Assembly (NCBI RefSeq): GCF_003991155.1
Contig: NZ_CP031293.1
Source of the DNA: Escherichia coli
GTDB lineage: Bacteria; Pseudomonadota; Gammaproteobacteria; Enterobacterales; Enterobacteriaceae
Reading direction: 5' to 3' (one strand)
DNA: 64,000 nucleotides
Under the pieces are notes generated by a model, which saw nothing but the letters and a program-made list of their open reading frames with translations, searched no databases and was not told where the DNA came from. Both the position numbers and the translations under genes were made by a program. Below are positions 29,492-37,357 of the stretch, piece by piece; the stretch's first letter is position 1, and every line of letters starts with the position of its first letter.

Positions 29492-29625
29492 AGTTTGCTC
29501 CTGCCATAACGTGAAGAAGCAATGACCTGGTGGTCCGTGACTTCCCTACGCTGGCATTATCCAGATCAGGTGATACGGGTATTTCTCAGCCTTCACGCAG
29601 AAGGGCACCCCGAGTCGTTTGGTTG
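29492..29625 (-). promoter_or_regulatory. TPP riboswitch (thi-box) leader of thiMD
   Basis: Minus-strand leader reads AACCAAACGACTCGGGGTGCCCTTCTGCGTGAAGGCTGAGAAATACCCGTATCACCTGATCTGGATAATGCCAGCGTAGGG, the thiM aptamer as I recall it, followed by the expression platform up to the thiM ATG. Confidence 0.85.
29544..29625. repeat. 82-bp direct repeat, left copy (attL-like); lies within the thiM riboswitch aptamer
   Basis: Perfect 82/82 identity with 37276..37357. Confidence 0.9.
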
Positions 29626-29837
29626 AATCTCTATATTTTGTGCCAGCTTAGGGGAAGTGGCTTGCAGATGCAAGCTCGCCTCCATTAATTGCTTCTTCTC
29701 TGTGTACCCCATTTTGTACCCCATATCAGAAATGAAAAAGAAACATTTAACATCTATCATTCAGATGATAAAAACTATTGATTATCTTAATTTGCTAATT
29801 TATATTATTTATCTAAATTTGATAGGTGAGATAAAAA

Positions 29838-30077
29838 ATGACAGAAACCCAGATCTACGAGAACATTAAGCAAGCCATTAGCAGCGCACCACGAAATAGC
29901 CAAACGATGGAAATGCACCTCCAGATGATCAAATATGCTGACCATCTGAAAAAGGTTACGGCAAAAGAGTTTTGTGAAGGTGTAGGACTTAAAGCCAGCT
30001 TTGGTACAGAGTTCAGCAAAATGAGAAATCTTACCGAGCGACTCAAAGCTGCTGGACTTGACACCACGAAGTTATAA
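29838..30077 (+). CDS. Hypothetical small protein (island)
   Basis: 79-aa ORF with SD-like GGTGAG upstream; no recognised motif. Confidence 0.4.
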   Translation: MTETQIYENIKQAISSAPRNSQTMEMHLQMIKYADHLKKVTAKEFCEGVGLKASFGTEFSKMRNLTERLKAAGLDTTKL

Positions 30078-30242
30078 AAAACAAATCATCAATATATTAT
30101 TTTTGTTTTCCAGACTTACTTGCATATGTTTCTACGAGCATAAAAAACAACAACCACCACATAGCTATTACCATAATAATGTTTTCCTTTTATATTAAAC
30201 AGAGAAATAGAATTAGAGCGTGGAATAGATGAATTCTATTTT

Positions 30243-30488
30243 CTATAACTTCTTGAGGTTGAATGTAGAAAAAGACAGCTCTTTCATTTCAATAACACCG
30301 AAATTTGATAGCTGTTTCAGCCAGAATTTTAAACCTGACTCAGAGCAACCTGCTCGATGTAACACATCGCTATATTTTAGCGGTGTTGGCTTTCCTTTAT
30401 AGAGGTAAACAAGCGTTTCGTAGGTGTGTTTTCCGGTGTCGTTACACTGAATGCGGTCTACTTGATTTTTTACTAAATATTGGATCAT
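30243..30488 (-). CDS. Hypothetical small protein, possible winged-helix (island)
   Basis: 81-aa ORF with AAGGAGG upstream, directly after the 239-aa gene stop. Confidence 0.45.
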   Translation of the reverse strand: MIQYLVKNQVDRIQCNDTGKHTYETLVYLYKGKPTPLKYSDVLHRAGCSESGLKFWLKQLSNFGVIEMKELSFSTFNLKKL

Positions 30489-30499
30489 AGTCCTCCTTA

Positions 30500-31219
30500 T
30501 TAAAATGGAATGTCAAAATCGTCCTCTTCTGTCTCAGGTATCGTGTATATATGTTCTCTTCCTGTAAATTCAGAAACCACTATTGAAATTAGCCTGTATG
30601 CCTCTATTTTATCGCCCTGCGTTTCAGCTAAAGCCCACTCAAGGGCTGCTTCTGTTGGCTGTCCATTCGGTTTGCAAATAGTGACACCGCCCCAAGGAAG
30701 CTCTGTTTTTTCCTGCTGAATAGAGCGTGTTGTTTCTAGTGTTTTTTTATCTTCCGTAGGGGGAAGCTGTTCAGGAACAGCTTTAACAGTAGATACTTGC
30801 TCTGTCTGTGGCTTTTCTGCATTTACAGAGGCTTTCGCTTCTCTTGGTGCTGTAATATGTGCATCTGTAAAGGGTAATGCTTTATAGAGTGATGTTTGAC
30901 CGTGGCGTGCCTCTACAGAAAGAACTCCCATATCAACAAACATATTTATAATATTGCGTACCTGACGATCACTAACCATTCCAATATTAGCTAATGTTTT
31001 TTGAGTAGCGTAACATTCTTGCCCTTGTTCATTGAATCCAGCTATATAGCTATAGATTTCAACGGCTGGCAGTGTAGCGGTGTATTCATTACCAGATGGT
31101 GAGTACCATTTTTTAAACATCTTCAACCATTGCTCAACAACTACATATTTTTGTTTACCATCTTTCTGATTTAGACATTTGGCTTTCGCTTCGGCAATTG
31201 TTTTGATATTTTTGATCAT
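30500..31219 (-). CDS. Putative replication-initiator-like DNA-binding protein with SSB-like acidic C-terminal tip (…EEDDFDIPF)
   Basis: 239-aa ORF with strong AAGGAGG SD; N-terminal wHTH-like segment, P/E/K/T-rich linker, C-terminus DDFDIPF. Confidence 0.6.
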   Translation of the reverse strand: MIKNIKTIAEAKAKCLNQKDGKQKYVVVEQWLKMFKKWYSPSGNEYTATLPAVEIYSYIAGFNEQGQECYATQKTLANIGMVSDRQVRNIINMFVDMGVLSVEARHGQTSLYKALPFTDAHITAPREAKASVNAEKPQTEQVSTVKAVPEQLPPTEDKKTLETTRSIQQEKTELPWGGVTICKPNGQPTEAALEWALAETQGDKIEAYRLISIVVSEFTGREHIYTIPETEEDDFDIPF

Positions 31220-31343
31220 TTAGTTCCTCCTTTGTAAGGACTGTAATTAGTAGTTCATTAACAAGTTTTGGAATTGATTTCCCTTCTGCCTTTGCGCGAT
31301 TTAACAACGCGTTATAAGTTGCAGAGTCAAAATTAATATTCAT
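31155..31343 (-). CDS. Ribbon-helix-helix (CopG/Arc-like) small DNA-binding protein
   Basis: Start at MNINFDSATYNALLNRAKAEGKS with GGAGAGGAGA SD; overlaps start of the Rep-like gene. Confidence 0.55.
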   Translation of the reverse strand: MNINFDSATYNALLNRAKAEGKSIPKLVNELLITVLTKEELNDQKYQNNCRSESQMSKSERW

Positions 31344-31365
31344 TTGGTTTTCTCCTCTCCTGTTA

Positions 31366-31548
31366 TTATTCTTTCTCTGCTTCTGCCTTACGCAGTTCAT
31401 CAATAATCTTGAGTGCATCGTCAAAGCATTTTTCACGCTCTGGATAACCTCGACTCCTTGCCATATTACGATTCATTACTACTTGATGTCGTGTTAACTC
31501 ACCTTTTTTAAATGCCTCTACGACGTGTTCCGGTATAAACCATTTCAT
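31366..31548 (-). CDS. Hypothetical 60-aa protein, first gene of the island's minus-strand operon
   Basis: ATG preceded by AAGGAG at optimal spacing; basic/acidic helical sequence. Confidence 0.5.
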   Translation of the reverse strand: MKWFIPEHVVEAFKKGELTRHQVVMNRNMARSRGYPEREKCFDDALKIIDELRKAEAEKE

Positions 31549-32323
31549 AAAAAACTCCTTATTCAGTTAAAAGAAAAACACCTTGCAAGCCTGACGGCTT
31601 CAAAGTGCATTGATTTTGATTATTTAGAGAAGAATGTTTTTCTGTCCCTCTAGTACCTATTATTACATATAAATAAACATTTGTCAATATCTTTTCATAA
31701 AAAATCAGAACCTTTTCATGCACTTACATTTTTTCTTAGCGATTCGTGCTCTCCTGTGTAGTGCTATTCTTCATTACCAGCTAAAACGCTCTAAAACGCG
31801 TTCTAACGAAGTTTTGATAAAAGCAATACATTCTCTTATGTAATGGCTGTTTAGCTCGCCAGAGGCTTATTTAAGTGGCTTATTTTGTATTTGTTAGATG
31901 ATGATAGATATAAAACAGAGAGTTCTTAGATTAGTTACTTTATAAAACGCTCTGTAAAGCCCTGTAGTGAGTTTATATATGTAGGCAAAGCGGTTTCCAT
32001 TCTCTACCCTGCTTAATGCTGTTAGAGAAGCATTTAGACCCCTTATTTTTAATTACCTAAAGTATCCTCTATACATCTCTGTTATGAAACACCTCTGAAT
32101 CCTTCATAAAACACATTATGACGCAAAGAACACTTTTCTAAGGTGATTCCCTTCCTGAACTCTGTTTCTTGCGTCAGAGAGCTACACAGAGAGCTTATAA
32201 AGCTATTATTAATAATAAAGTAGATAAAGTAAGTAAGATAAGTAAGAAGATTAACTAAGATAGATAAGATTAATAAGATCAGAATTCTCTTTCGGTGTCG
32301 CCTCTGGCTTTTCCACCGAAAAC

Positions 32324-33019
32324 AATTACACGACTACAGAATGTAGGAAGTGAAATTGTATTGAGGCTTAGTGAAATTACACGAGGAAAGCAGAGTGTAA
32401 TTGAGCTTTAGCCGCTCTCTCTTCGAGTAATTACACAACTACAGAGAATAACAGAGTTATTAAATGTAGGAGGGTAATTAAGAGTTAGAGAGAGTTAACA
32501 CGTAAGCAATCAGATGATTGGTTAGGTGATTACTCTTACTGCGCACAGCGCAATAGTATTCCTTCGTGGGCGTTACCGCCAACGATAGTTACACGAAGAA
32601 AGTAACGCTTTGCTTTCGGTGTGAGCGGAACGGGCCAGCCACAAAGCCCGAAAGGTAGCGGAGTAAGGCTGCTTGCCAGAGAGTGGAGCTAACGCCGGAA
32701 GGCAAAAGATCATATATATAGTATAAAGAATATTATTTAATTATAGTATTGGTGGAACTCATTACCTAAGGTAAACCGGAGACCACTTCCAACGGTTAGG
32801 CAACCACTTCCAATTGTGTTATTTCCCCTTTTACCCTAAGTAAATTTTAGCCTTTCGTTACATCCATTTATCACATAGCACTTACCCTGTGTAAATCATA
32901 GAATAATGCTCTCTATTCCCTGTGTAATTCCATACTAAAAAATTCAATGAAAAGTAGTTTAAAAGTGCAATGTTAGCTTTCTTCACTTTTACATCACTTT
33001 CGCTGCGCCTTGTGTAATG
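32324..33019. repeat. Iteron-like repeat cluster (AATTACAC core, both orientations) in a 1.75-kb non-coding region
   Basis: AATTACACGACTACAGA at ~32324 and AATTACACAACTACAGA at ~32429; shorter copies at ~32375 and inverted at ~32396, ~32885, ~32918, ~33008. Confidence 0.6.
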
Positions 33020-33312
33020 CGGCTTACAGAGCACTATCAGAAATTATTGATCAAAAATCAACCTATTATTTGTCGAACAAGTTTTCTTTAATGCAACAAA
33101 AATTATTTTTTCAAAATAAACACACAATTTAATAGCTTGCTAATTTTACCAAAATGTAACTACATGATTCTCATGCAAGAAGTGTAGTGATAAGGCAGGC
33201 TAAATCACCACACTAAAAAACTTCGAATTTCGTAGTGAAAAAAGTACTTTACACACCTAATCAACACGCCCAATAATCACTACACACAAATCAATACAGA
33301 AGAAAAAAGAAG

Positions 33313-33864
33313 ATGGCTAATATTGGATACATTAGGGTATCGACTGTGCAACAAAACACAGACCGTCAATTAGCAGGAGTAACTCTTGATAAAGTCTTTG
33401 AAGATAAAGCGTCAGGCAAGAACACTCAGCGCCCACAGTTTGAGGCAATGATGAACTATGTGCGGGAGGGTGACGTGTTACACGTCCATAGTATTGATCG
33501 CCTTTGTCGTAATACAGCCGACCTTCTGGCAACTGTAGAGCAATTAACAAAGCGCGGCGTGTCTGTGCATTTCCATAAAGAAGACTTTAAGACAGGAAAG
33601 AACTCTCCCGCAGGGAATATGATGCTCACAGTTCTTGCAGCAGTGGCACAAATGGAACGTGAAATGATGCTTGAGCGTCAACGTGAAGGGATCGCCGCAG
33701 CCAAGGCCGCTGGACGTATAGCAAAACGTGGTAATGGAAAAGCAATTGATCGAGCGGGAATTGCTGCCGCTCTCGCGAATGGTGGCTCAATTCGGAGCGT
33801 AGCAAAAGATTTCAGTGTCAGCACGCAGACGGTGCAACGTATCAAGAAAGAGCAGGTGGCGTAA
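33313..33864 (+). CDS. Small serine recombinase (resolvase/invertase family)
   Basis: 183 aa; N-terminal catalytic motif IGYIRVSTVQQNTDRQ with the nucleophilic Ser; C-terminal HTH. Confidence 0.85.
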   Translation: MANIGYIRVSTVQQNTDRQLAGVTLDKVFEDKASGKNTQRPQFEAMMNYVREGDVLHVHSIDRLCRNTADLLATVEQLTKRGVSVHFHKEDFKTGKNSPAGNMMLTVLAAVAQMEREMMLERQREGIAAAKAAGRIAKRGNGKAIDRAGIAAALANGGSIRSVAKDFSVSTQTVQRIKKEQVA

Positions 33865-34030
33865 TGCCTCCTTGATATTTGACAGGGACGGTCGGCAAAA
33901 ATCGGGGCTTGCTGATCTCAGCGTTGAGCGGTTCTTGCAATGGTGCCTAGGTGCTCGCTTGTATTCCCCTTCGATAATCACCACTAAGCCACTTATTGCC
34001 TTGTGGAGTGGCCCGAAAATTACTGATATC

Positions 34031-34531
34031 TTATTGATTCAGTCGATCCCATTTAACCGCAGATACAATTCCCCAATTACCACTAGCATTAGGCCTACGC
34101 CACTTCGCGGTTTCCATTCCACGAAGGTATTCGAGAGCTTCATTGAACGAACTGAAACGTTTCTGGGCTGATTTTTCCCCTACTCTAAACGAACCATCGC
34201 GAGTACTTGCCAATCCTGGATGAAAACACGACCCATCTGCAGCATAAGGAACAAGTACCTCCTGATCATCAGGTTTCCTTGAATCAGAAGCCAGTAACTG
34301 CCAAGGCTCAATACGCAAAGCGTCAGCCAGAACCTCAATTGCATCAAGAGATGCATTAGAGCAACCACGCTCAATTCGACTCATATAACTACGTGCAAAA
34401 CCACACCGATCTGCAAAGGCCTCTTGGCTTAAGCCAATAGCTATACGGAACTCTTTTACTCGTTGTCCAAAAAGGTATCTCAGATTCTTTCGCATGGCAC
34501 AAAGATGCAATTTGACGCACCAATTAACCAC
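34031..34531 (-). CDS. XRE-family HTH regulator with uncharacterised C-terminal domain
   Basis: Cro/C1-type HTH (GLSQEAFADRCGFARSYMSRIERG); likely start at internal Met (34495). Confidence 0.7.
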   Translation of the reverse strand: MVNWCVKLHLCAMRKNLRYLFGQRVKEFRIAIGLSQEAFADRCGFARSYMSRIERGCSNASLDAIEVLADALRIEPWQLLASDSRKPDDQEVLVPYAADGSCFHPGLASTRDGSFRVGEKSAQKRFSSFNEALEYLRGMETAKWRRPNASGNWGIVSAVKWDRLNQ

Positions 34532-34605
34532 GCACTAATCGTGACATTTTGAATCAATCATGTATTATTAGCATCACCATCCATTTGACACACCAAGGGA
34601 GACAA

Positions 34606-34953
34606 ATGAAAAAACTAGTATTTGCCGCTTTGTTAATTCCAGTGATGGGCCACGCCACAACCTTTTCCTGTAAAGCAATACAGGAAGGTCATATTGACTC
34701 GGGAAGTCAGAAAGTTTCTGTAGATTCAACTTTTGATATACAAGATAAAAAAATGACCATAAATCTTGGCGGTAAAACTTGGAGACTTGATTTGGTAGGT
34801 CAAAAAAGCATCGCAAAGATGTATGCTACACCTGACGGAGGGGTTGCAGCCACATACATTGACAATGGCAGTATACCGATATTTGTATTACGCCCTTCTA
34901 ATCCCGATGGGGAGATGGCTGTTTACACATTGAGTATGTGTTCTGAAGTATGA
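34606..34953 (+). CDS. Small secreted protein of unknown function
   Basis: Start at MKKLVFAALLIPVMGHA (signal peptide) with AAGGGAGA SD; divergent from the XRE gene. Confidence 0.6.
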   Translation: MKKLVFAALLIPVMGHATTFSCKAIQEGHIDSGSQKVSVDSTFDIQDKKMTINLGGKTWRLDLVGQKSIAKMYATPDGGVAATYIDNGSIPIFVLRPSNPDGEMAVYTLSMCSEV

Positions 34954-35030
34954 TTGATCGGCGTGATATTCACGCCGTTTTTGGGGAAATTTGTATATTG
35001 AAAAATATAGAAATAGAACTTTTATCAAGC

Positions 35031-35756
35031 CTATTTATTAACAGGTAGTAATGTCAGATCGCCATAATGGGCTTGTCTATGGCAATTAGGACATAATGCA
35101 ATAGCATTTTCCACAGAGTCCTCCCCCCCCTTTGAAAGCCACTCAATATGATGAACTTCTAGAAATGGAGTACCATCTTCCTTTAGAAAAGGAGCATCTC
35201 GCTTACAATATTGACATTTTCCATTTGCACTCAAAAGAACTTCAGCAACTACATATGGGCTTCGTTTATAAACTCGTGTTGTTACTTCGATTAGTTCCGG
35301 GATTTTACTTTCTGTCGCTAAAATTTGCTTTCGTTCCACTGAAGATAATTTTGCAGCCGTCTCAACAGCTTCTTCGAAAACCGATTTTACTTGACGATAA
35401 CGCCACATCCCTTCTAAATCCTGGTATAATTCCCAAATACCGTGCACAGATGGTTGATAGATTTCAAAAATATTTCCACGCTTGAACAATCGGTCATACT
35501 TATGATGCCGATGAGTTACATCATCAGTTCGTCGGGCAGTTTTGTTGAAACTCCAGTAGCTCCGCTTACAATTAACTGTATTAGCAATTAAATTGAGCCA
35601 AGTATTATCTTTATAAGATGGAAATAGCTTTCTAAGATAATCATCTACCTGCTTAGCCGTTGCAGCCCCACCAAACTGATTAGCAATTATCTGTATGGTA
35701 ATAGCTCTTATCGGTTGATCGCCATACTTGTATTTTTTGCCTAAATTTTTAACCAT
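35031..35756 (-). CDS. HNH endonuclease, McrA-like C-terminal nuclease domain with distinct N-terminal domain
   Basis: C-terminal CQYC...EVHHIEWLSKGG...NAIALCPNCHRQAHY zinc-finger HNH motif, similar to what I recall of E. coli McrA; ~150-aa N-terminal region unrecognised. Confidence 0.75.
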   Translation of the reverse strand: MVKNLGKKYKYGDQPIRAITIQIIANQFGGAATAKQVDDYLRKLFPSYKDNTWLNLIANTVNCKRSYWSFNKTARRTDDVTHRHHKYDRLFKRGNIFEIYQPSVHGIWELYQDLEGMWRYRQVKSVFEEAVETAAKLSSVERKQILATESKIPELIEVTTRVYKRSPYVVAEVLLSANGKCQYCKRDAPFLKEDGTPFLEVHHIEWLSKGGEDSVENAIALCPNCHRQAHYGDLTLLPVNK

Positions 35757-35884
35757 AGAAGACTCACTAAGCCTAAATTCATCTTAAGTTATTATTGTAA
35801 ATTAGTTGTGAAAATTTTTGATCTCAGACAATAAAAATCTACAAATTATTAGCTGGTTATACACTAAGAAGGATACACGAATAA

Positions 35885-37222
35885 CTAAGTCTCCCAACAA
35901 AGACCATCGATCACATAACAAACGGTGGAAAGTGGGAATGTGTGCAGATAACGCTGGGTAATCCCTACTCCACTCTTTTCATGACCTACCACCTGTTGCA
36001 GATGCGCCAAATTACTCACCCAACCAGCTAAACAAGTAGAAATCATAGTATGCCGGAAACTATGCACCAAGCGCCGCTGCCCATAATCATCAAGATAAGG
36101 AATATCAAGCTGATCACGAACATCTGAAAGAACTTTACCTATCTTTGACATATTTCGACCTGAGACTTCCGAAAAGATTTTCTCTTTCCATTGGCGGTTA
36201 ACAAAATCCAGAAACCCCCACTCAATCAGTTTGGGATGAATCACTACCTGTCTTGTAGCATTCTCAGTTTTACCCAGCCTTCTTTCCGCGATCAGAAGAT
36301 AGTGCCGCTGGCTATCTTCATCAAATTTGATCTGCGACTTCTCCAGTTTAGCAATCTCACCTCTTCTGGCTCCTGTGTACGCCAACAACAAAGTGATCCA
36401 CTTCTGCCATCCATCAGGCTGCTTTAGTGCCCATCCTACAAATTTTTTCATTTCTGCTGCACTGTATGCACCAAACCTAGCTTTGGATGGTGCCGCTACT
36501 ATTCCATCAGTCGGAGACTTAGATAGAATATCTTTGTTTTCAGTCAGAAATGTTTTGAATAACGATTTGTAGATTTTAAGGTGCTTATGTACAGCCTCAG
36601 CACCAACTAAATCCTCTGGCAGCACATCATCACATTCGATTAGTTGCTGAATAGTCATTGACCTATACGGTTGCACTACACGCTTTGGTAAGTTTTCGAC
36701 AGTTTCCATTACTCGCTTAATATCTTGTTTGGTGATTGCCGTTACGTCTGTTTCTTTTCCCAAGACAACAAGCAATACCTCCATATAACGCTCATTTGCC
36801 ATTGAGATCGATTTTGTCCAATTTCGACCTCTTTCCTCCTTGTACATAGCCCACGCATCAGCAAGTGTTAGCACCTTTTCCGGTTTGGCTGGTGGTTGAA
36901 GCTGCAAAACTTCTTTAGAAATATTGTTCAATTGCTGAGGGAGTGGCAACGGAATCATTACGTTACGTGACGAAGCGATCAAGTTTGAAACAAACTTATT
37001 AAATTGTGGCAACGGAGTAGCGAGTGATTTAACGAAAGGAATGTGCGGAGTAAGGCCAATCATCAACGCCGATGCTTCGCGATAACTGTCAGTAAAAAGT
37101 GATTTTTTGTATATCCGACCATCCGAAAGCCGGATTTGTAGATAGTAATTACCGTTTCGCTGAAATGTGTATGGGAGAGTTCTTGACCTCATAAACGCCC
37201 CCTTTTTGTACCTTAACAGCAT
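35885..37222 (-). CDS. Tyrosine site-specific integrase
   Basis: 445 aa; C-terminal catalytic region with HSFRHT and GITQRYLH; starts 53 bp from the right direct repeat. Confidence 0.85.
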   Translation of the reverse strand: MLLRYKKGAFMRSRTLPYTFQRNGNYYLQIRLSDGRIYKKSLFTDSYREASALMIGLTPHIPFVKSLATPLPQFNKFVSNLIASSRNVMIPLPLPQQLNNISKEVLQLQPPAKPEKVLTLADAWAMYKEERGRNWTKSISMANERYMEVLLVVLGKETDVTAITKQDIKRVMETVENLPKRVVQPYRSMTIQQLIECDDVLPEDLVGAEAVHKHLKIYKSLFKTFLTENKDILSKSPTDGIVAAPSKARFGAYSAAEMKKFVGWALKQPDGWQKWITLLLAYTGARRGEIAKLEKSQIKFDEDSQRHYLLIAERRLGKTENATRQVVIHPKLIEWGFLDFVNRQWKEKIFSEVSGRNMSKIGKVLSDVRDQLDIPYLDDYGQRRLVHSFRHTMISTCLAGWVSNLAHLQQVVGHEKSGVGITQRYLHTFPLSTVCYVIDGLCWET

Positions 37223-37275
37223 GATTTATGGTCAAAAAGAGATACAACCACATAATTTTCAAGACTATTTTGGCC

Positions 37276-37357
37276 CCCTACGCTGGCATTATCCAGATCA
37301 GGTGATACGGGTATTTCTCAGCCTTCACGCAGAAGGGCACCCCGAGTCGTTTGGTTG
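37276..37357. repeat. 82-bp direct repeat, right copy (attR-like); duplicate of the thiM aptamer segment
   Basis: Identical to 29544..29625; followed by native sequence leading into rcnR. Confidence 0.9.

Follow-up and report, generated by a model that had tools for sequence, protein, structure and literature searches.

The stretch of DNA analysed here (the window) comprises 64,000 nucleotides of chromosomal DNA from an Escherichia coli contig and hosts an integrated island in which one gene, here termed rep, encodes a 239-aa protein that RefSeq labels as a hypothetical protein (WP_000594464.1). Sequence evidence supports the view that this open reading frame (ORF) encodes an initiator with a RepA_N fold and that the island to which it belongs is of satellite type and has a candidate origin. 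The protein ends in a short acidic peptide resembling the C-terminal tip of SSB (single-stranded DNA-binding protein), through which SSB contacts its partner proteins. Taken as a whole, our observations are best explained if Rep initiates replication of a satellite-like integrated element and uses this SSB-mimicking tip to dock host SSB partners, an explanation that may be right or wrong with about equal probability. The gene and the parts of its product are arranged as follows.

30500-31219, minus strand: rep, encoding the 239-aa replication-initiator-like protein, with its stop codon at 30500-30502
30845-31219, minus strand: N-terminal winged-helix DNA-binding domain (aa 1-125) with a predicted fold like that of RepA_N and of the DnaD N-terminal domain (NTD)
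30707-30844, minus strand: disordered linker (aa 126-171) with many E, K, T, Q and P residues, a recombination breakpoint between domain modules
30530-30706, minus strand: small class A C-terminal domain (aa 172-230), predicted as a beta hairpin and two helices
30503-30529, minus strand: flexible acidic tail (aa 231-239) with the tip ETEEDDFDIPF, in which the DDFDIPF codons lie at 30503-30523

AlphaFold2, run with a 28-sequence alignment, confidently predicted a winged helix for aa 1-125, with a predicted local distance difference test (pLDDT) score of about 90. The class A C-domain (aa 175-225 in the model) reached pLDDT 78-88, whereas the linker (aa 130-171 in the model) scored 33-38 and tail residues 231-236 fell below 50. 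The predicted layout contains no OB fold, and on this model window Rep is therefore not an SSB. Database searches returned little that was more specific. The sole Pfam match was to HTH_36 (aa 55-98, E 3.3e-5), with no match to the Pfam RepA_N profile (PF06970), and the PHROG matches of aa 40-170 to replication-initiation, O-like and DnaD-like families were weak (E 1e-5 to 7e-4 for the "replication initiation O-like" families). NCBIfam and PADLOC yielded no match for Rep or for the small ORFs of its operon, and the class A C-domain had no match in Pfam, PHROG or the PDB. PDB sequence searches with Rep found generic winged helix-turn-helix (wHTH) regulators only, with 4RO3, the NTD structure of RepA from the Vibrio cholerae satellite PLE, reaching just E 0.83 in a profile search, and Foldseek against AFDB50 returned only uncharacterised enterobacterial HTH proteins. 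We also noted that the most conserved stretch of the Rep family, ALP[FL]TDAH[IV]xPP (aa 113-126; window positions about 30842-30883), lies directly after the wing, and that L115, P116, and P125 are nearly invariant across the family. In another island, L008, a wHTH paralogue of 121 aa whose gene lies just downstream of rep has the same motif (L008:8828-9193).

The C-terminus of window Rep reads ...IYTIPETEEDDFDIPF (TEEDDFDIPF; tip peptide, TIPETEEDDFDIPF), and E. coli SSB has MDFDDDIPF as its final nine residues (PMC3045619). The two proteins thus have D-I-P-F-COOH in common, preceded in both by acidic residues and one Phe. More specifically, window Rep has I at -2, D at -3, -5, and -6, and E at -7 and -8, and its Pro-Phe stands at the extreme C-terminus, followed by the stop codon, leaving a free carboxylate. 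The order of parts is also SSB-like, with a disordered linker and then a conserved acidic tip ending in [IL]-P-F. Both points had been raised in the first-pass annotation of this DNA, which likened the C-terminus to the SSB tip and thought that the N-terminus looked like a winged helix rather than an OB fold, so that the protein would not be an SSB; the comparison with E. coli SSB and the structure prediction agree with it on each.

An exhaustive phmmer search of 1.84 billion representatives delineated a Rep family of 32 clusters at 50% identity, with Escherichia, Citrobacter, and Klebsiella as named sources, and a profile re-search of a large protein database added only three new members. Among 46 full-length-like homologues, [ILVM]PF forms the C-terminus of 31, another PF-type end is found in 3 more, and 4 end in another aromatic residue; the remaining 8 are tip-less and include 3 phage nuclease fusions, 1 truncated protein, and 1 fusion. 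The tip is retained down to 26-37% overall identity. Once their last eight residues had been removed, the C-terminal 67 residues of the 46 homologues fell into at least six C-domain classes without mutual BLAST similarity, and the tip occurs in class-specific versions (DFDIPF; YDSIPF/YDSLPF; FDPIPF/EFELPF; QSAVPF; KWGIPF; LTPDPF). The N-domains are shuffled across the family as well. Throughout, [IL] is retained while acidity varies (YDSIPF, KWGIPF). Such an end is otherwise rare: among 723 ORFs (60 aa or longer) from the window and the loci L001-L007 (about 220 kb), only 8 end in [ILVM]PF, all of them Rep or its homologues. Over about 270 kb of window and loci in all, no further ORF has such an end, and the 146-kb genome of phage muut has one small ORF ending in LPF. 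The Shine-Dalgarno sequence of the next gene begins after the rep stop codon, so the tip codons do not overlap it. This pattern of conservation indicates selection on the terminal [IL]-P-F as a short linear motif, which has stayed constant while its surroundings were exchanged. A constant tip amid shuffled N- and C-domains therefore points to a constant external partner. Host SSB-interacting replication proteins appear to be the most probable such partner among the readings considered, at close to even chances.

A candidate origin was found about 1.5 kb upstream of rep, in an ORF-poor gap.

32754-32811, minus strand (the rep strand): three candidate iterons, GGAAGTGGTTGCC, GGAAGTGGTCTCC, and GGTAATGAGTTCC, spaced by 21 and 24 bp
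32705-32753, minus strand: 49-bp AT-rich tract, a candidate DNA-unwinding element, directly adjoining the iterons

The iterons have the semi-palindromic form GGAAxTGxxTxCC, and their spacing corresponds to roughly two helical turns. Two strict matches to the pattern occur in the window, against 0.07 expected. The same arrangement of iterons and AT-rich tract is present in the related island L002. More broadly, four islands with the same Rep DNA-binding domain (L002-5) have 3-5 copies of GGAAATGAGTTCC, 22-23 bp apart (35 bp for the first), followed by an AT-rich tract. In the equivalent place, two islands with different Rep DNA-binding domains have other repeats, namely, in L008, five copies of GGACATTTTGTCC spaced by 22 bp and, in L014, TGAAGATTTCTCA spaced by 23 bp. 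The iteron sequence thus covaries with the type of DNA-binding domain, as described for RepA_N iterons. Iterons within the rep gene, as in lambda or pSK41, were also considered, and none were found there. In the GC-rich part of the gap (32545-32694), folding z-scores of -1.0 and -0.7 gave no sign of a structured RNA, and the only Rfam hits were two thiamine pyrophosphate (TPP) riboswitches. The gap also contains several copies, in both orientations, of the octamer AATTACAC/GTGTAATT (32320-32445 and 32885-33015), outside the candidate origin; possible roles for this octamer are those of a res site, of a packaging site, and of a target for some other protein of the module.

In the mechanism that we propose, the RepA_N/DnaD-like winged-helix N-domain would bind the three iterons at 32754-32811, a contact that we infer from sequence, and this binding would open the adjacent AT-rich tract. 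The disordered linker and small C-domain would hold out the flexible acidic tail, and its tip, ...DDFDIPF-COOH, would dock on host SSB-interacting proteins at the place where they receive SSB, a hydrophobic pocket with a basic rim. An initiator bound to a duplex origin might in this way bring in parts of the primosome or replisome whose usual route of arrival is solely through SSB-coated single strands. Such recruitment would be needed because the islands of the Rep family that were examined have no recognisable gene for a helicase, primase, or loader; likewise, no helicase or primase Pfam match was found among the called genes of related islands. For an initiator without a helicase, primase, or loader of its own, PriA, DnaG, or chi would be useful partners. 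In chi, P176 and F177 of SSB fit into a hydrophobic pocket with basic residues around it, K124 contacts the terminal carboxylate, and similar pockets are present in ExoI and RecQ (PMC3045619). The window tail presents the elements that chi recognises (Pro, Phe, and the terminal carboxylate) on a flexible segment. We postulate that satellite initiators adopted the SSB docking peptide, with a duplex-bound protein mimicking SSB-coated single-stranded DNA and calling PriA, primase, or the clamp loader; in this specific form, we rate the proposal as a tentative one with slightly less than even chances.

Several observations weigh against docking of host SSB partners. Class C tips (EIYDSIPF) are weakly acidic. 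In five homologues (P0024, P0033, P0041, P0062, and P0063), a second, internal motif D[FL]D[DA][IL]PF[AV][WC]D lies in the disordered linker (pattern, PD[FL]D[DA][IL]PF[AV][WC]D; for example, PDFDDLPFVWD), with degraded copies in P0040 and P0050, and one homologue ends in IPFF. Since SSB extended by one C-terminal Gly no longer binds chi, which needs the free carboxylate (PMC3045619), neither the internal copies nor IPFF would be usable as a strict SSB C-terminal tip (SSB-Ct). The internal copies are either relics of an older C-terminus or a sign that the partner tolerates internal motifs. The Rep of L014 is tip-less and has a larger C-domain instead; as tip-less relatives exist, the tip is not obligatory for such initiators and represents one of several solutions. 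We also list here an AlphaFold2 model in which chi was fused to the C-domain and tip through a 35-residue Gly-Ser linker (chi-(GGGGS)7-C-domain-tip): chi and the C-domain were both well folded, and the tip scored pLDDT 44, compared with 46 without chi, a result that, having neither a positive control nor coordinates, is uninformative rather than negative. Finally, the replisome may come from the helper phage, as it does for PLE, which needs the replication functions of phage ICP1 and does not replicate on RepA alone (PMC7145576).

The internal copies are also relevant to an alternative in which the motif is of the beta-sliding-clamp hexapeptide type (QLxLxL) and tethers the initiator to the clamp. 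Hda carries such a hexapeptide (QLSLPL), and in plasmid RK2 the QLSLF motif of TrfA tethers the initiator to the clamp. Clamp motifs function internally as well as terminally, which would explain the internal copies, and the window tip can be read as x-F-D-I-P-F, in which position 2 is hydrophobic, position 3 is D, position 4 is aliphatic, and Pro (as in Hda) and Phe occupy positions 5 and 6, so that the clamp anchor positions (I-P-F) fit. However, the Gln at position 1, the hallmark of the consensus, is absent from every family member, including window Rep, and many tips (YDSIPF, FEDLPF) have D or E at position 2. What does not vary is instead [IL]-P-F at the extreme C-terminus after acidic residues, which is the SSB-Ct signature, and we regard a clamp-binding motif as improbable.

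The dependence of PLE RepA on helper phage replication functions makes a phage partner a serious rival to host docking: the tip would then target the replisome of a helper phage rather than that of the host. Many phage SSBs have an acidic tail with a terminal Phe that is recognised by the phage's own polymerase or helicase. PLE RepA is the closest structural relative of window Rep, and close contact between phages and this satellite family is implied by a protein of Justusliebigvirus lytic coliphages (muut, inny, BI-EHEC, and Mt1B1_P17), phages that encode their own polymerase, primase/helicase, and helicase. In muut, this protein is gp094 (332 aa; L011:31258-32256, corresponding to NC_052657.1 81258-82256). 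Its two HTH_36 domains are of the Rep type, and one shares 82% identity with that of window Rep; the protein lacks an IPF tip and has a MUG113/T5orf172-like C-terminal domain that matches the PHROG "endonuclease" family (E 2e-18). The tip of window Rep, on the other hand, is identical to that of host SSB (DIPF), whereas a search of muut turned up no ORF ending in an SSB-type D-[IL]-P-F, and the one small protein found there that is acidic and Phe-terminal has the end DDDSEF and no known function. Overall, we consider a helper-phage partner unlikely, and docking of host SSB-interacting proteins remains the reading that we prefer.

The architecture of gp094 is that of Odn from ICP1, in which a RepA_N-like domain is joined to T5orf172 in a nuclease that cuts the PLE origin; a nuclease activity of gp094 is predicted from its sequence. 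Because of this shared architecture, Justusliebigvirus phages are candidate helpers or adversaries of the satellite family. The muut genome contains, in addition, five copies of the palindrome GGCGGGAA[AG]TGGTTTCCCGC (also written as GGCGGGAAATGGTTTCCCGCC), compared with 0.16 predicted by shuffling. All are on the minus strand within 6 kb, with ends at 66512, 67371, 69380, 71689, and 72268 (NC_052657.1, L011), each lies just downstream of a TTGACA/TATAAT-type sigma-70-like early promoter, and they contain the satellite iteron core GGAAxTGGTTTCC. These palindromes could be operators of gp094, or sites that satellite Rep also binds. It follows that the phage's own DNA may be an additional or alternative target of gp094, and that the shared DNA-binding specificity may also touch early transcription of the phage.

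The island that hosts rep and its other main genes are the following.

29626-37357, no strand assigned: integrated island of about 7.7 kb, flanked by an 82-bp direct repeat
35885-37222, minus strand: tyrosine integrase
35031-35756, minus strand: HNH/type IV restriction-like protein (PADLOC type IV methyl-directed restriction enzymes, E 2e-23)
34031-34531, minus strand: control-protein-like HTH regulator
33313-33864, plus strand: DNA invertase/resolvase

The direct repeat (29544-29625 and about 37276-37357) lies within the TPP riboswitch of thiM. Rfam detected two complete TPP aptamers, one before thiM and the other at the far end of the island; the riboswitch is present twice because insertion of the island duplicates 82 bp of it. 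The ORF-poor gap that holds the candidate origin extends for 1.7 kb from the resolvase to the rep operon. The HNH and HTH genes (34031-35756) may form a defence module, and a 134-aa ORF lies between them on the opposite strand. An integrase, attachment (att) repeats, and a rep gene with iterons, the set by which satellites were recognised here, are all present. The window island is a short variant without capsid and tail genes, and no genes that would hijack or remodel helper virions or packaging were found in it.

Among 5426 complete E. coli genomes, the window island is present in about 80 and the full rep gene in 75, and about 165 further genomes have the N-terminal half of rep only, with the break at the linker (about aa 122-136). 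Homologues at 26-91% identity reside in syntenic islands of roughly 11-13 kb, where the gene order is a small recombinase, an ORF-poor gap, a ribbon-helix-helix (RHH) ORF, Rep, a small conserved ORF, further small ORFs, and then a major capsid protein, tape-measure-like and Dit-like proteins, and a DUF6538 integrase. One related 13.2-kb element has been deposited as a circular plasmid. Judged from their gene content, these features fit phage-satellite-like elements of enterobacteria. An incomplete literature search, which covered satellites of Stephanstirmvirinae, found no paper describing such a family.

The make-up of the window island bears on a further alternative, in which the tip is a decoy that occupies the pockets of SSB partners, or the OB fold of SSB, and thereby titrates repair and replication factors of the host or helper. 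Satellites commonly interfere with their helpers, the capsid module has been lost from the window island, whose cargo is defence-like, and a decoy would rest on the same sequence mimicry as docking for recruitment. Titration, however, would require high copy numbers, and throughout the family the tip sits on a sequence-specific origin-binding protein with its own iterons, which fits local recruitment better. We give the decoy only a slim chance of being correct and retain recruitment of host SSB-interacting proteins as the preferred explanation.

The rep operon consists of four minus-strand ORFs, of which the three accompanying rep are listed here with a candidate promoter.

31659-31687, minus strand: candidate sigma-70 operon promoter, TTGACA-17 nt-TG-AATAAT (extended TG), proposed solely from its 11/12 match to the consensus
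31366-31548, minus strand: 60-aa ORF, the first of the operon, 72% identical to the ORF in the same position in L002
31155-31343, minus strand: 62-aa RHH-like ORF immediately upstream of rep, sharing 65 nt with the start of rep
30243-30488, minus strand: 81-aa ORF downstream of rep, the conserved partner gene of the module as judged by its position relative to L006 and L002

An AGGAG-type Shine-Dalgarno sequence precedes each of the four ORFs, which bears out the first-pass suggestion, made from the sequence, of an operon joining rep to an RHH protein and two small ORFs with strong ribosome-binding sites. The RHH-like ORF is not annotated in RefSeq; its translation begins MNINFDSATYNALLNRAKAEGKSIPKLVNELL and has a weak PHROG match. 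An identical copy is present in L002, and RHH-like ORFs occupy the equivalent place in the distant relatives L006 and L008. The 81-aa ORF shares 52% identity with the ORF in the same position in L006 and 23% (E 3e-6) with that in L002, and no family matches were found for it in PHROG, NCBIfam, or PADLOC.

Across the family, the gene after rep is conserved as a partner of 81-92 aa, and it might itself receive the tail. The tail would then act within the protein or module, either binding this small protein or folding back as a DNA mimic that autoinhibits Rep at its basic DNA-binding face; the tails of SSB and T7 gp2.5 do bind their own DNA-binding surfaces. What is conserved, however, is the hydrophobic [IL]PF end rather than charge (some tips have few acidic residues), and a tip that stays constant while DNA-binding domains and C-domains are shuffled argues for a constant partner outside the protein. 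AlphaFold2, moreover, does not dock the tail on the protein. An intramolecular or intramodular role thus seems very improbable, the least so favoured of the alternatives, and we return to the tip as a docking peptide for host SSB partners.

How initiators without helicase, primase, or loader activity bring in the replisome is an open question for RepA_N proteins and satellites alike, as stated in the PLE paper (PMC7145576), and a copy of the SSB tip on an origin-binding protein would be a concrete and cheaply testable answer. The parts, RepA_N-like initiators and the SSB-Ct, are known; we did not find their combination described. Our literature search found no SSB-Ct mimic on an initiator or satellite protein, although this search was incomplete and is not proof of novelty. 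If our explanation is true, replisome assembly could proceed without an element-encoded helicase, primase, or loader, possibly bypassing DnaA. With Rep, an SSB-Ct mimic would be seen for the first time on a protein that is not an SSB, and the SSB interactome would gain a natural probe. In addition, mobile elements would be targeting the well-studied pockets of SSB partners through molecular mimicry, and the uses of the SSB-Ct would extend beyond SSBs. The family would also give E. coli a satellite-like element with a likely arms-race partner, the Odn-like nuclease fusion, in lytic coliphages with a place in phage-therapy collections.

Among known systems, PLE RepA of V. cholerae resembles window Rep in being the initiator of an integrated phage satellite with iterons in a non-coding region. 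Its C-terminal domain likewise has no detectable homologues, and its DNA-binding domain, like that of the Rep family, has been copied in a nuclease fusion of a lytic phage (Odn). PLE RepA was assigned to the RepA_N family by structure and not by sequence (PMC7145576). It differs in its host, and no SSB-like tip has been described for it, a comparison made without the C-terminal sequence of PLE RepA. The staphylococcal RepA_N initiators (RepA of pSK41 and pTZ2162; 4PTA, 4PT7) share with window Rep a DnaD-NTD-like winged-helix N-domain, which in the staphylococcal proteins binds semi-palindromic iterons (PMC7145576). Their variable, host-specific C-domain is thought to recruit host replication proteins, and the C-domain of window Rep is much smaller. 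Unlike them, window Rep lacks a Pfam RepA_N match (HTH_36 only) and has an SSB-type tip at its end, and its candidate origin lies upstream of the gene, whereas theirs is inside it. With initiators of the lambda O type, window Rep has the weak PHROG matches in common, and no iteron array was found inside its gene. TrfA of RK2 is also an origin-binding initiator with a short linear motif that contacts a replisome component, so the concept is shared; the TrfA motif is the beta-clamp QLSLF, whereas that of window Rep matches the SSB tip. Finally, the SSB-Ct itself has, like the window tip, a terminal D-I-P-F-COOH preceded by acidic residues and one Phe on a flexible segment. The upstream Phe is at -6 in SSB and at -4 in window Rep, and the SSB tip ends a 56-residue linker, whereas the window tip lies about 10 residues from a folded domain. 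Unlike SSB, the carrier of the window tip is predicted to be a winged-helix protein that binds duplex DNA sequence-specifically and has no OB fold.

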